A stretch of DNA of 64,000 nt from Octopus sinensis (taxonomy: Eukaryota): the NCBI RefSeq assembly GCF_006345805.1, contig NC_043002.1, positions 97,588,001 through 97,652,000 on the forward strand, in the 5' to 3' direction. The translations under genes were made by a program, and so were the position numbers. Shown one piece after another: positions 25,197-49,132 of this stretch (the stretch's first letter is position 1; every line of letters begins with the position of its first letter). Below the pieces are notes generated by a model that was not told the origin of the DNA, searched no databases, and saw only the letters and a list, made by a program, of their open reading frames with translations.

Positions 25197-26406
25197 TTAG
25201 CTTGGAAAGAAAGTAATTTTGTTTTACGCAAATAGATAGTTACGATTTTTTTTAAATAACTTTTGTCACCGTTATGATTTTTTTCCTTTTGACATTTGAT
25301 AGCCGTTACTTTTAGTACTTTTGTCTTGCTTTAGAAGCAAATTGCGCGTAATTTTGTTTACAGCTGTTAGCTCAGTGTCAGTTTTAACATGGAGTACAAA
25401 AACGAACATTTTCGCCATATTTTGGTTTTTCATTTCCGTAAAGGCAAGAAAGTTGCTGAGTCTCACAAAGAAATATGTGTAATTTATGGTTTTTGATTGC
25501 TTAACAGAACGCACACATCAGAAATGGTTTTTAAAATTCCGTTCTGAAGATTTTTCATTCAAAGACGACCAACGTTCTGGTCGACCTACTGAAGATGATG
25601 ATCACCGAATCAAAGCCATAATTGAATCTAATTATCATATAATAGTGCGAGAGATTGTAGAGAGGTTAAATATATCACACACAACAATTGAAAATCACTT
25701 AAACAGTCGTGGACTCGTTAAGAAGCTTGATGTTTGGGTTCCACAAATTGAAAGAGATTCACTTAACATAAAGAATCAATATTTGCGATATGCATCTCAA
25801 ACACAATGAAATCAACCTTTTTTGAAACTAATCATCACTGGTGGTGAGAAATGGATTGTCTACAATAGCATCAATGGAAAAGAATTATGGTCTAAGTGTA
25901 ATGAACCAGCACAAACCACATCAAAAGCTGAATTTCATCAAAAAAACGTCATGCTGTCAATTTGGTGGGATTACAAAGATGTGTATTTTGAACTGCTTCC
26001 AATTGACCTAACGATCAATTTAGATGTTTACTGGAGGAGGCAATCAAAGAAAAACAGCCAGAATTAGCAAATCGTAAAGGAATCGTGTTCCTGGGAGGTG
26101 ATGTTACATTCATCATATAGCCCTGACCTTGCATCATCAGATTACAATTTATTTCGAAGTTTTCAAAAGCCTTTGAATGGTAAAACTTTCAATAACGATG
26201 ATAACCTGAAATCGCACTTGCTTCAGTTTGGGGCTGATAAGGACCAGAGGTTCTATGATCGCGGAATCGTGAAGTTGTCAGAAAGATGGCAAAAGGCCAT
26301 CGAACATAATGGAAAATGTATAATTGGGTGAAGTTCATTCTTTGTATGAAAAAAAATTAATTTTATTTCTCACTGAAAAACCGAAATTATATACTTGCCA
26401 ACCCAA
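25197..26406 (+). mobile_element. Decayed mariner (mellifera-like subfamily)
   Basis: ATG at 25389 MEYKNEHFRHIL; DVWVP, ITGGEKW, VMLSIWWD, YSPDLASSDY motifs; right TIR ..CTTGCCAACCCAA, degenerate left TIR. Confidence 0.93.
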
Positions 26407-26409
26407 TTA

Positions 26410-26720
26410 AAAATAGGTTTATATTTTGCGATAAAATATGCTTCTTTGCTAATGCACTGATTATAGGTTGCATTGTCCCTGAATTTGTAGAGGGAAAAAT
26501 TCTGAAGTTAAGTTGTTCGTTAGTAGGGCAAATATCGATGTGCTCGCTTAATCCTGTTTTTCTGTATTCCCGTATTTTAATCTGGCATCTATGTACCATC
26601 ATCCTTTAGCGTAGACCGTTTTTAGTTTGACCAATATATTGTTTTCGACACCCTGAGCAAAGTAATACATATATTAGGTTTTCCGAAGCACATGTGAAGT
26701 AGTTTTTCACTGAGTTTATT
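26410..26720 (-). mobile_element. Penelope-like element GIY-YIG endonuclease fragment
   Basis: FTCASENLIYVLLCSGCRKQYIGQTKNGLR*RMMVHRCQI..LSEHIDIC, the CCHH-type GIY-YIG layout of PLEs. Confidence 0.88.
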
Positions 26721-27367
26721 GTGGCGTGTGCATATGAGCCTGTATGTGTTTTACACACACGCGAACAAACACATACACACACATGCGCACACACAACACC
26801 CTAACAAATATTAATTACACACATACACACACAAACGTGCACACATATACACGCACCATCCTACCAAATATAAAACACACACAGACCCATATACACACGC
26901 CACAATAAACTCTGGGATCAATCAAAAACAGCCCACACACAAACACATGTATATACACACACACATAGAGACGTGAACAGAGACAAACACCTTCACACCA
27001 TTCTGACCTGTAAAACCAGTCCCAAAAACCACTGAAGCATGACAGACTAGCCCAGAAACAAAAAAATCATTTTAATTCCATATTGCTCCTCCTTCCCCCC
27101 ATCCCAACCAACCTCTCACACTGTCCCTTAAAATAGCAAACATTTATAAATTCTTGAATATATCTCCTTCTATTTATATATATACTACCAAACAAACTTG
27201 ATTTTTATTGAACTCCTAATACTTTTTGTTGAATATTTTCTTAAATACTTACTTGTGAACTGTTTTTAACATTTGCTTATTATAATAAAAGAAAGCATAT
27301 ATGCATTTTAATACTTTTGTGATAACCAGTACTTAACACAACAAAACTTATACAAAGCTTACATTTT

Positions 27368-43875: not shown

Positions 43876-44108
43876 GGCGGCGAGCTGGCAGAAACGTTAG
43901 CACGCCGGGTGAAATGCGTAGCCGTATTTCGTCTGTCGTTACGTTCCGAGTTCAAATTCCGCCGAGGTCGACTTTGCCTTTCATTCTCTCGGGGTTGATA
44001 AATTAAGTACCAGTTACGCACAGGGGTCGATATAATCGGCTTAATCCGTTTGTCTGTCCTTGTTTGTCCCCTCTGTGTTTAGCCCCTTGTAGGTAGTAAA
44101 GAAATAAA
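43876..44108 (+). mobile_element. SINE family B, tail type 1
   Basis: Homology to 49133-49363. Confidence 0.92.
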
Positions 44109-44239
44109 TATGCGCGGCTGTGGCCGATCGGCTCTGCTGTAGGTTGGGCACTGGTGTTCTACTGGGACTGAAGGCAAGGAGTTGGTTCCGAACGGCAAAT
44201 AAGCAATTAAGCATCTGCAGATTGGAATGGCACCATGTG

Positions 44240-44445
44240 AAGCAGAACGTCAGCGAGAATCTGGACAGCAAGTTGAGCCAACTCGATGTTGGTGCAAAAA
44301 GAGCAGAAGAGGATTGTGTGGTGTTCAGAGACGTAATGTACAACACTGCACTCACTCATCTGGGCCAGAACACGCGTAAACACCAAGACTGGTTTGACGA
44401 CAACGATCAGGAAATTGAGAAGCTGCTCCGTAAAAGGCATGAAGC
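44240..44445 (+). mobile_element. RTE LINE internal fragment
   Basis: FRDVMYNTALTHLGQNTRKHQDWFDDNDQEIEKLL, typical RTE region between EN and RT. Confidence 0.8.
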
Positions 44446-44611
44446 TCGGTTTCCCACAATGTGGCCTGTAATGCCTGCATGTATATCTTACTCCATGGTT
44501 ACACGTGTCCACTGTGCTAGAGAACAAACATGAACCGAGGGCTAAGCCGCTGCCAGAGAATACACTGCGATTGAAAAACGCTGTAAGCCAGTATTAAAAT
44601 TCAATACAGTA

Positions 44612-44934
44612 CTGGCATTCCGTCGGCTGCGACGATGAGTGTTCCAGTTGACCCGATCAACGGAACAGCCTGCTGGGGAAATTAACGTGCAAGTGGCGGA
44701 GTACTCCACAGACAAGCGTACCCTTAACGTTGTTCTCGGGGAACTTCAGGTGGCACAGAATGTAACTAGGCTGACCCCTTTGAATTGCAGAAACTACTCA
44801 TTTCTGCTGGCTGAGTGGACCGGAGCAACGTGAGATAAAGTGCTTTGCTCAAAGGCACAATGCACAGCCGGGTGTCGAACACATGACTTGACGATCGTGA
44901 CCCAAGAACCCTAACCACTGAGCCACGCGCCTTC
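44612..44934 (-). mobile_element. SINE with family D head and the family C type 1 tail
   Basis: Head GGCGCGTGGCTCAGTGGTTAGGG; tail matches 10150-10280. Confidence 0.8.
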
Positions 44935-45297
44935 ACAGAATCACGTGCTTCCACCAAGCCACGTGCCTTTCTCCGCTATAGACAAGATCAGTTCTATTGC
45001 CGAACAGTCGTAGGAGAATCAAAAGACACGTTTAACCTTTTAACATTCAGATTACTCTGTGAACTGTGAGGTTTGTTTTTACTCTTTTACTTGTTTCTGT
45101 CATGTGACTGCGGCCCTGCTGGAGCACCGCCTTTAGTCGAACAAATCGACTCCAGGACTTATTCTTTATAAGCCTGGTACTTATTCTGTCGCTCTGTTTT
45201 GCCGAATCACTAAGTTACGAGGGTGTAAACACACCAGCATCAGTTGTCAAGCGATGGTGGGAGGACAAACACAGGCACACAAACATATACATATATA

Positions 45298-46169
45298 CGT
45301 GGTATGATCAATAAGTATCCGGACTCTTGCCATAGTAACGAAGCTAAAGCACACAGAGTGAAGTCGCTTGGCATAGATTGACCTTAAAATCTGCTGTGTA
45401 TGCTCACTAAGTTTTAACGGTCTAGCTCACTTCTATTGTTTACAGAAGTGCTAAGAAGGAACGTGTGTAGCGTGTGATCATCGCATTGAACCATGACAGA
45501 GAAAGTTGAGCAGAGAATCAGCACCAAATTTTGCCAAAAGCTTAGCGATATCTGCTCAGAAGCCTACGCAAATTTTTCAAAAGGTTTTCATCGTTTTCGA
45601 CACAATCAAAGATCTTGTGCTACTGAAACCTGGGGGTCTTTTTGGTCAGCTGAAAGCAGTTTTAGCACAAACTTGGCAGACACACGTCTCATGCCCAAAT
45701 CTTCAGTGATAATCGACGGAAATGAATCTGTACATCCTTTGATAACTCATGGATCGTGATTCGATGATTTCCCCTCACAGCTGCACGCATATCTGCGATG
45801 TTTTTCTCAGTTCTACTGGTTGCGGGTCTCCCAGGACGTTCGCCAATATCGACATTTTTTCAGCCAAATTGGAAATGTCTGAACCACTCGTACACATGTG
45901 TGCGGCTCATACACTCCTCTCCATACACTTTCTGCAACTTTGTGTAGGTACCGCCATGACAACTTTCTCTATCATGGCCAATGCGACGATCACACCCTAC
46001 ACACCTACCTTCCAAGCATTGCTGTAAACAGCGAAAGTGAACTAGATCGTTAAAACTTAGTGCGTATGCACTGCAGAGTTCAAGGTCAATCTCTGCTAAG
46101 CAGCTTTACTCTACGTTCTTTAGCTTCGTTACTATGGCAAAAGTCGGGATACTTATTAATGAGACCATG
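45298..46169. mobile_element. Fold-back mariner derivative with ~210-bp inverted ends
   Basis: Both ends carry TIR, 5' UTR and ATGA(C/T)AGAGAAAGTTG start; TA flanks; MTEKVEQRISTKFCQKL. Confidence 0.88.
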
Positions 46170-46173
46170 TATA

Positions 46174-46698
46174 CCCTCCTAGCGTGCGGCATTTATGTGT
46201 AATAATGCCCTCTATATAATATAAATAAATATATTCAAGTGAAAAAATTTACAGATTTTTTTCTCTTATTAGGTTTTTCACGCTAACTACTTTATAATTT
46301 CTTATGAAGATTTTATCCTATTTTTAAATTATAAATTTCACCGGAATAATTCAATACTGAATTTTTATTCCGAATAAGCACGTTGTTACCGAAATGCAAT
46401 TCGAAAAAGACCGCCATTTACATAGATGTATAAGGGGTGAACAGTTCTATATGCTACGGTGGATACGATGGTTGTTCGTCTGGTATGTTGATTTTGTTCA
46501 TTCATTATAAATCTTGAATCGCTGTACTGATGAGTAAGGGACGCAGCCACTGCTTTGATTACGAAATCACTGGTGATCTGCAACTAAATTCTGTTTTTAA
46601 ATGACTTGCATTCAGTACGATATGTTTATTTTGGTAGTTTTGACTTTAAGAGTCCCTCCTAGCGTGCGGAATTTATGTGTAATAATGCCCTCTATATA

Positions 46699-46703
<5 letters not shown>
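46174..46703 (+). mobile_element. Terminally redundant 480-bp non-coding retroelement (retrozyme or Penelope pLTR unit)
   Basis: 50-bp direct repeat 46174-46223 and 46654-46703; contains a hammerhead; sits in (TA)n. Confidence 0.75.
46521..46584 (+). ncRNA. Type I hammerhead ribozyme
   Basis: GCTGTA-CTGATGA-GTAA..TTAC-GAAA-TCA(CTGG)TGA-TC|TGCAAC; predicted cleavage after C46578. Confidence 0.8.
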
Positions 46704-46729
<26 letters not shown>

Positions 46730-46887
46730 ATATTATATATATATATATACGACGGGCTTCTTTCAGGTTCCGTATACCAAATCCACTCACAAGGCTTTGA
46801 TCGGCCCGTGGCTACAGTAGAAGACATTTGCCCAAGGTGCCACGCAGTGGGACTGTGTCCGAAACCATATGGTTGGGAAGCAAGCTT

Positions 46888-47073
46888 CTTATTTCTTTAT
46901 TGCCCACAAGGGGCTAAGCATAGAGGGGACAAACAAGGACAGACAAGCGAATTAAGTCGATTACATCGACCCCAGTGCGTAGCTGGTACTTAATTTATCG
47001 ACCCCGAAAGGATGAAAGGCAAAGTCGACCTCGGCGGAATTTGAACTCAGAACGTAACGGCAGAAGAAATACG
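46888..47073 (-). mobile_element. SINE family B tail 1, 5'-truncated
   Basis: Homology to family B. Confidence 0.88.
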
Positions 47074-48211
47074 GAACGAGCAGGTTGTACCGCAGGTCGG
47101 ATCAACTTGAACACTCATCGTCATAACAGACGGAGTACCAATAAATATGAGGGCAAAGGAAGCTTTTTGATAAGCGAGAGTTATATTCCTGCTTTATGCC
47201 TCGTTGCAAAAGCAATTTAACAAAAACATATTAACTTTAAAACTTGTTTTTACCCTCTGACACGATGACTGTTCAGCAATGATCTTGAAATAACCCATAG
47301 CAACTTTTTAATTTTGAACATCACCGCTCGATGGCCTGTGGATTCAACAACTTGAACGTGAATTGAATTTTGCAATAACAGTTATTGAAGGCTGAGCAGT
47401 GAATTAACTACTTAATCCAGGTCGTACCTGATGTGAATCATGATTGAGTTAAAATATTTATTGGAAAGTTGATATACAAAATCAGAGTTCATCTGTCTTG
47501 TGATGTAGCGTTAAATTGTGATGTTGAAACTTAACATTGCATTCAACTAATACATTTTATTTATTTATTTACTCCGTTCTTCTTGTTTAATTTATTCATT
47601 GAAATGAAACGTTAAAAGGAAAAGTAACAGAAATTACGTGATCGTCGTTTAAATTGATCGTATTCAGTGAAGTTTTCTTCAAACTCCATTTTTTATCTCT
47701 CCTCATACATTTACCATTCTTTACACAGCTAATTCCGCTATTGTTTTTCATTTTCTATCATATCTTTTAAGTTTTTTTTCTTTTTCCTTCTTCAATCGAC
47801 TGACGATATTTTGATGTTTGAAGCGCTTACTTCTACATGCAACCGAGAGTGTTTTCTGAGTAGTCAATTAAAATATAACAGTTGCCTAATGACTAATAGC
47901 TTTGACTCTAATCAAAACAACGACGCAAACTGTATTTCTACTGTATTGTTGTGTTTCTCGACCCACTTTCTCGGCGTTGTCTTATCAATGATACCTGACC
48001 GCTATGGCTAAGATTGCAACAATCATTAACATGTCACACACTTTCCATTATCAGTAATAACAAGAACATTATAACTACTACCATAGCAACAATGAGAATA
48101 TACCCAGCACCATTACTGACGCTGAGCTATTAGCATTGTATAATGCAAAAAGTCTGAACCAAATCAAAAAAAGGTAATTTCAGTGATAATTACCACTTCA
48201 ATCAACAACAT

Positions 48212-48252
<41 letters not shown>

Positions 48253-48324
48253 CTCTCCCTCTCTCTCCCTCTCTCTCTCTCTCTGTCGCTTCTAAAACTA
48301 AACTAGTAGTTTTGTATTCTTTTA

Positions 48325-48450
48325 TTCAGTTATTTGTTTCAGTCATTTGACTGCGGCCATATTGGAGTACCGCCTTTAGTCGAACAAATCCACCAACATC
48401 GGTTGTCAAACGATGGTGGAGGACAAACACATTCGCACACACACACGCAC

Positions 48451-48481
<31 letters not shown>

Positions 48482-48590
48482 TACATACATACATACATAC
48501 ATACATACATACATACATACACACACACATACATACATACATACATACACACACACATACATACATACATACATACACACATACACACAT

Positions 48591-48621
<31 letters not shown>

Positions 48622-48875
48622 TACATACATACACACATACACACATACATACATACATACATACATACACACACACATACACACATACATACATACATAC
48701 ATACATATACACGACGGGCTTTCTTTCAGTTTCCGTCTACCAAATCTATTCAGAAGGCTTTGGTCAGCCCGAGGCTATAGTAGAAGACACTTGCCTAAGG
48801 TGCCACGCAGTGGGACTGAACCCGGAACCATGTGGTTGGTAAGTAAGCCACTTACAACACGGCCAATCCTACGCC
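48325..48875 (-). mobile_element. SINE family A with expanded internal (CATA)n/(CA)n
   Basis: Both halves flank the 48435-48710 microsatellite. Confidence 0.9.
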
Positions 48876-49132
48876 TATATAACTAACTTTATCTAAACCT
48901 GCAAATTCCTGCTCTACTTTTCTTATTTATTACTCTGTTAGACTCCTTAGTAACTCTTTACACTAAACTTTCTTTCTGTTATACATCTACGGAACACTCT
49001 TTCTGTTATACATTCTATTGAATATCCTCACTTTCCGTGATTTTTATGCCTAAAACATCGACAGAAGACGATATTAGACGCCACTACCATTCTATCGTGT
49101 CAAATTAAGTATTATAATTATTCTCTACGTGA

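Follow-up and report, generated by a model that had tools for sequence, protein, structure and literature searches.

What kind of element is the non-coding, hammerhead-bearing unit that lies in a (TA)n microsatellite of Octopus sinensis, and how was it copied there? The unit occupies positions 46174-46703 (+ strand) of the window, i.e., the whole 64,000-nt stretch analyzed here (contig NC_043002.1, positions 97,588,001 to 97,652,000). A first-pass annotation, made from the sequence alone, had described it as a terminally redundant retrozyme candidate inside the (TA)n of a SINE. The 50-nt direct repeat on which this description relied is present at a spacing of 480 nt (copy 1, 46174-46223, + strand; copy 2, 46654-46703; one mismatch) and is followed by (TA)n. 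The absence of a recognizable ORF was also borne out, with no stop-to-stop frame inside the unit exceeding 65 aa. The monomer (32% G+C) is 480 nt long in this copy and approximately 490-495 nt family-wide. The (TA)n setting held on the 3' side, where the target microsatellite spans 46693-46749 (no strand assigned), but not on the 5' side, where an unrelated, TA-flanked, MITE-like element of 880 bp (45294-46173, no strand assigned) with inverted arms of 195 nt abuts the insertion, nested in the same TA tract. The insertion and the MITE-like element are together flanked by the two halves of a host interspersed repeat that was split at its own microsatellite (left half, 45077-45298, + strand; right half, 46750-46891) and that matches, over 45077-45298 and 46722-46891, an intact sister copy at approximately 48320-48854. 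Contigs of four runs, which are only presumed to be RNA, cover the unit, with the flanking MITE end covered equally deeply and with ends, strand and circles not resolvable.

The predicted ribozyme is a type I hammerhead at 46516-46590 (+ strand), with core and stems in place and predicted cleavage after C46578. Every core element previously listed was found again, namely CUGAUGA at 46527-46533, stem II GUAA/UUAC, GAAA, stem III AUCA/UGAU, and the AUC triplet with C46578. In its overall build, stem I is open and contains an internal loop, stem II consists of 4 bp, a 2x2 loop and a hairpin of 5-6 bp, and stem III has 4 bp. The hairpin capping stem II, given earlier as GCAG/CUGC, does exist, but its family form is ACGCA/UGCGU or GUGCA/UGCAC, from which the window copy departs by one G>U. 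When the 111-nt region of the window was folded alone, the minimum-energy structure was not a hammerhead (z 0.07). The Rfam hammerhead models that had been suggested as a check gave no match either, at E<=5 in window positions 44000-49000 or at E<=10 in eight loci.

The window unit belongs to a non-coding repeat family whose copies, hundreds in number, are dispersed in the genome. In the same genome (2.72 Gb), an exact 21-mer from downstream of the hammerhead has 665 matches and an exact 19-mer from upstream of it has 103, while the reversed controls have 0 each, which settles the multicopy question that the annotation had left to a genome search. A DNA search of this genome returned 2545 first-look candidates, and the other long matches among the 40 scored had 83-95% identity. 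Approximately 165 of the several hundred family loci were read in total. Sample 1 comprised 125 loci (best DNA matches, 19-mer sites and further DNA matches) and is biased toward long copies, and sample 2 comprised 46 loci from the first 52 of the 665 21-mer sites, with four overlapping loci removed. The set used for end pairing contained 163 de-duplicated loci, 124 of them from sample 1 (one duplicate out) and 39 from sample 2 (two loci common to sample 1 and five segmental duplicates out). Near-identical insertions with matching flanks occur at several places on contig C1 (L246-L249 and L220/L242/L243) and are apparently segmental duplications.

Conservation of the hammerhead was evaluated in 131 aligned copies, selected from 144 hammerhead regions, of which two did not pass a length filter and 11 were set aside as additional copies in a locus already represented. 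The core (C3-U4-G5-A6-N7-G8-A9, G12-A13-A14-A15.1, and U16.1-H17) is fully intact in 101/131. Position N7 is free (U74/C25/G20/A12), H17 is C in 77, A in 40 and U in 14 copies and never G, U4 is replaced mostly by C, and conservation elsewhere in the core ranges from 116 to 130 of the 131 copies. Such substitutions are what a working hammerhead tolerates, and the pattern in this alignment indicates selection on the predicted catalysis. Furthermore, when the structure was specified, 92% of cells in the 131 rows were paired, and 102 double-change cells were counted against 34 +/- 5 in shuffles. The stem covariation that the annotation had proposed to look for is thus present, mainly at three pairs of stem II (GC80/AU38, UA82/CG36, and UA120/CG8), and the 102 double changes represent few subfamily-level events among related copies rather than 102 independent ones. 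RNAalifold with default settings predicted no pairs for the 131 rows, and with RIBOSUM scoring and relaxed penalties it recovered the three-way junction. A set of 21 near-full monomers showed no covariation outside the hammerhead. Folded as a circle, the monomer reaches -103.5 kcal/mol, compared with -86.8 +/- 5.4 kcal/mol in 60 shuffles (z -3.1).

We then turned to the ends of the insertions. Among the loci read, 5' ends are scattered along the monomer. The 3' ends fall mainly into two classes, A (profile position 40-72, where TA microhomology adds padding) and B (150-165), separated by a tail of approximately 110 nt. Sample 1 (n=125) has 59 A, 49 B and 17 other ends, and sample 2 (n=39) has 8, 29 and 2, respectively. 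In sample 1, 100 of the 108 A or B ends are followed by TA-type or other short repeats. The window copy ends at site A (46688-46703, + strand), a putative start of reverse transcription that lies approximately 120 nt downstream of the cleavage site and merges into (TA)n; the same motif also occurs internally at 46208-46223. The motif of site B, the second putative start, is internal in this copy (46311-46333, + strand; approximately 110 nt downstream of site A) and terminal in 49/125 other loci.

A head-to-head inverted 5' arm was observed in 60/125 loci of sample 1 and in 25 loci of sample 2, giving 85 of the 163 de-duplicated loci. Both outer ends could be classed in 56 of these 85 insertions, and all 56 pair an A end with a B end: 24 combine an inverted B arm with a sense A arm, 32 combine an inverted A arm with a sense B arm, and neither A+A nor B+B occurs. 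The remaining 29 have at least one end outside A and B. Within the inverted arm of one locus (L161), a 44-nt piece of the monomer forms four tandem copies, as might result from RT slippage or a local duplication.

The sense arms in sample 1 have a median length of 444 nt; 47/125 exceed 510 nt, and the longest reaches 873 nt (1.75 monomers). Among the loci read, long arms continue through the hammerhead into the previous monomer, and no other shared sequence and no ORF is reached upstream. The redundancy in the window is therefore the 50-nt wrap-around of an A-ended copy, a 5'-truncated insertion of 1.1 monomers, and its interpretation as a fixed feature of the unit had to be abandoned, as the 5' end is an arbitrary truncation and the 3' end one of two sites. 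While head-to-tail wrap-around is common (the 47 arms above), true dimers are rare. Two same-strand hammerheads were found in four loci of sample 1, one of these hammerheads being partly deleted, and an exact spaced-pattern search of the genome yielded a single match and no tandem arrays. Of the two arrangements foreseen for the copies, circular permutation is hence present, at the 5' end only, but tandem arrays were not found. More-than-unit copies are present in every subfamily seen.

The positions of 5' ends relative to the scissile bond were assessed for 46 arms from 41 loci, two of which repeat loci of sample 1. Among these arms, 29 stop short of the bond, five lie within -10/+6 nt (one exactly at it), and 12 cross it, with no pile-up of 5' ends. 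Given that only one arm in 46 ends exactly there, cleavage has left no clear mark on the insertions, and since insertions cross the cleavage site intact, the copied RNA would have been largely uncleaved or re-ligated. Rare variants common to duplicated segments of one insertion were seen at 25/4585 sites, compared with 0.04% in random pairs; this signal is confounded by subfamily, draws 6 of its 25 sites from one local tandem repeat, and does not separate a circle from a dimeric source locus.

The family is, with high probability, a dispersed hammerhead mini-element that is non-autonomous and was likely copied into (TA)n in trans by the enzyme of an autonomous Penelope-like element (PLE). The features scored as a PLE footprint were 5' truncation, a head-to-head inverted arm, an AT-rich or microsatellite target, and a tail at one end. 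The earlier suggestion of a non-autonomous family mobilized by Penelope is supported by this footprint (56/56 A+B, 5' truncation, and TA targets) and by the lack of an ORF, but no partner match was obtained in the sampled PLE loci. In the mechanism that we propose, the GIY-YIG nuclease of the PLE would nick both strands of (TA)n, and its RT would initiate at A or B, within the RNA, with TA microhomology assisting. Where both nicks prime, one would use A and the other B, which would give head-to-head arms with the 110-nt tail at one end. The hammerhead would cut read-through or dimeric transcripts to unit length, the units would be ligated into circles, and an RNA template in the form of a circle or multimer would restore more-than-unit copies. 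A simple fold-back of a single cDNA was considered as well, and it fails to explain insertions in which the tail lies on the other arm although the A arm extends further in the 5' direction; as either arm may be the longer one, two primings fit better than fold-back of one cDNA. Because an internal RT start needs no RNA 3' end, a circle could be used as template, and we regard a circular RNA template as plausible, with the chances about evenly balanced. More tentative, and a little short of an even chance, is the complete proposal that circular ribozyme RNA is copied by a two-headed PLE enzyme from two internal starts, one per nicked strand. If it is true, internal initiation would explain how an RNA without a 3' end can undergo target-primed insertion, and the strict A+B pairing (56/56) would be an insertion-level record of animal retrozyme circles moving by Penelope machinery, in at least two families of this genome that are unrelated in sequence and have only short motifs at A and B in common.

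Several of these steps have precedents in autonomous PLEs. A lizard PLE cuts and extends both DNA strands; its genomic tail is delimited by two internal RT starts, its protein is a predicted dimer, hammerhead cleavage is dispensable in vitro, targets are AT-rich, and uncleaved RNA is the main template (PMC11167929). Inverted 5' arms, a tail at one end and a bias toward microsatellites have been described for PLEs more generally (PMC8557442, PMC3846280), and circles were proposed earlier as templates of PLEs or retrozymes (PMC4209133, PMC7229834).

A candidate source of the enzyme exists in the octopus genome itself, which contains many GIY-YIG matches, some of them sharing an open frame of 775-883 aa with an RT domain. 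The linker of these frames has the CxxC pairs of Neptune-type PLEs. The partner search covered few PLE families and at most approximately 2 kb downstream of most ORFs. Within this scope, BLAST and HMM comparisons of the monomer with 42 GIY-YIG or ORF loci detected no DNA similarity, 29 loci of a second PLE family (one member of which is fused to the monomer in L067) gave no match, and the PLEs adjacent to L139, L157, L201 and L026 showed no similarity to the monomer. A covariance model of the family, run over 75 sequence sources, retrieved only family copies and two sister-family hammerheads. PLE protein matches occur in 7/125 and 2/46 family loci (the two repeat earlier loci) at no consistent position or orientation, and the two family-locus PLEs examined are separate insertions. 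No RT + GIY-YIG ORF is joined 5' of the repeat among the family loci read, in line with the expectation that copies would not be tied to a Penelope ORF with fixed ends.

Some PLE-related sequences deserve separate mention. At L067:1835-2176 (+), monomer position 145 is fused directly to a PLE GIY-YIG fragment without a TA spacer, a single case for which template switch or deletion is possible, both fitting. A young RT + GIY-YIG PLE family (L091-L098, e.g., G000:C6:12730000-12735500) has many copies and several open frames of 781 aa; it ends in (TA)n, and motif scans of its 3' region detected no canonical hammerhead. The GC-rich PLE family of L209 and L104-L132 has a (CA)-rich 3' region, approximately 3 kb long in L209, with a minimal hammerhead-like core at its end. 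The window itself contains a fragment of a PLE GIY-YIG region at 26394-26746 (- strand), 54% to the 781-aa protein.

Could the repeat instead be the ordinary pseudo-LTR (pLTR) of an autonomous PLE, with the sampled copies all being 5'-truncated remains? Its end anatomy is as in PLEs, the first 3' site being preceded by a hammerhead at a distance of approximately 120 nt; the reads cover only approximately 165 of several hundred loci, and L067 does join monomer position 145 to a GIY-YIG fragment. We nevertheless consider this unlikely, given that long copies extend upstream into the previous monomer and not into an ORF, that PLE protein matches are few (7/125 and 2/46) and inconsistently placed, the two examined being separate insertions, and that the PLE of L067 lies downstream, while 29 other loci of its family have no monomer match. 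Mobilization by a non-PLE LINE, or DNA-level recombination between microsatellites, with the hammerhead as a passenger, appears very unlikely. Inversions with 5' truncation are also seen in L1 insertions, and the sampled PLE loci provided no partner match; against this, the 3' ends lie within a permuted unit and lack poly(A), the invariable pairing of A with B corresponds to the tail of PLEs, and the hammerhead substitutions indicate selection on the predicted catalysis.

A more serious competitor accepts the PLE and dispenses with the circle. Linear read-through from a few dimeric masters, or RT jumps between monomers, might generate the wrap-around, and the hammerhead would then serve another purpose, e.g., trimming host sequence off the 5' end; we view this combination as a real possibility, though one clearly below an even chance. 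The longest arm of 1.75 monomers, the failure to find arrays and the existence of two-hammerhead loci all agree with it, as does the finding that hammerhead mutants of the lizard PLE insert normally in vitro (PMC11167929). On the other hand, more-than-unit copies are found in all subfamilies seen, and 5' truncation should erode them unless length is restored. The monomer is also predicted to fold as a self-paired circle (z -3.1), and a sister family, described below, has the same period of approximately 480 nt and wrap-around as well.

Returning to the PLE-copied mini-element, the family resembles non-LTR retrozymes in how it works and PLEs in how it inserts. It shares with metazoan non-LTR retrozymes (Cervera & de la Pena 2020, PMC7229834; Li, Clavereau & Pollet 2026) the non-coding, low-G+C composition, a full type I hammerhead with stem III, head-to-tail continuity, a predicted self-paired circle, and PLEs in the same genome. 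Its monomer of 480-495 nt compares with 170-400 nt (PMC7229834) and 51-972 bp (10.64898/2026.07.22.740005). Metazoan retrozymes are dimers to multimers, whereas the insertions here are dispersed and range from less than a unit to 1.75 units, and circRNA and cleavage have been demonstrated for the former and are predictions for the present family. As the RNA circle is putative and tandem organization is seen as wrap-around in many arms but as two hammerheads in only four loci of sample 1, we have not filed the family as a plain retrozyme.

The endonuclease-bearing (EN+) PLEs, i.e., Poseidon PAc (PMC11167929), Neptune/Naiad (PMC8557442) and the Adineta Penelopes (PMC3846280), likewise have two 3' ends that define a tail, a tail at one end of inverted structures, a head-to-head inverted 5' arm, 5' truncation, microsatellite targets, and a hammerhead upstream of the start sites. 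They differ in possessing an ORF and a tail of 30-40 nt, compared with no ORF and approximately 110 nt here; further, many PLE pLTRs carry a minimal hammerhead (PMC4209133) and this family a full one, and none of the PLEs sampled in the genome matches the family in sequence. Non-autonomous Chlamys PLEs such as MRC1 (PMC8557442) form pLTR-like head-to-tail insertions, as here. As a rule, their 3' end is similar to that of an autonomous family, whereas no partner similarity was seen for our family, and most Chlamys elements are without a canonical hammerhead (PMC8557442), which is conserved here. The element class is already known, and the best reading is that this is a non-autonomous, retrozyme-like mini-PLE, dispersed rather than arrayed. 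At the level of search results, the literature gave no account of the family or of strict A+B pairing in a retrozyme, and Repbase, Dfam or supplements of the retrozyme papers may include it or related families. The giant squid genome has 235 Rfam hammerhead-1 matches (PMC6962438), and the part of a review (PMC7761336) that was consulted makes no mention of cephalopods.

As a route for the movement of animal retrozymes, PLEs have been proposed in the literature from co-occurrence and sequence likeness. A recent preprint, for example, argues from co-occurrence and pLTR similarity in vertebrates that retrozymes are non-autonomous PLE derivatives, and states that the mechanism of movement remains to be worked out (10.64898/2026.07.22.740005). 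The link drawn here comes instead from insertion junctions. Dispersed and numbering in the hundreds, the junctions of this family are a record of the integration step, and the 110-nt tail is long enough for unambiguous scoring, with classed arms never sharing a start site. With its 490-nt unit and mapped start sites, and with intact PLE ORFs in the same genome, the family provides a substrate for asking if priming by a PLE takes place on a circle and if both starts belong to one enzyme dimer.

The two further hammerheads matched by the family covariance model have the same stem II build. One belongs to an abundant sister family (L093:5040-5501 (+); L263-L274) with 3905 first-look candidates and a period of 478-479 nt, which repeats the anatomy of wrap-around, (TA)n ends and two 3' sites. 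Its inverted arms use different sites in four clear cases among 12 loci (L268, L270, L271, and L272; judged by eye). The two families have no significant similarity to each other (best E 0.8, around site B), and short motifs are common to both at A and B. The other hammerhead (L112:3312-3386 (-), with a related stretch in L159) has a (TA)n end approximately 170 nt beyond it and probably represents another mini-family.
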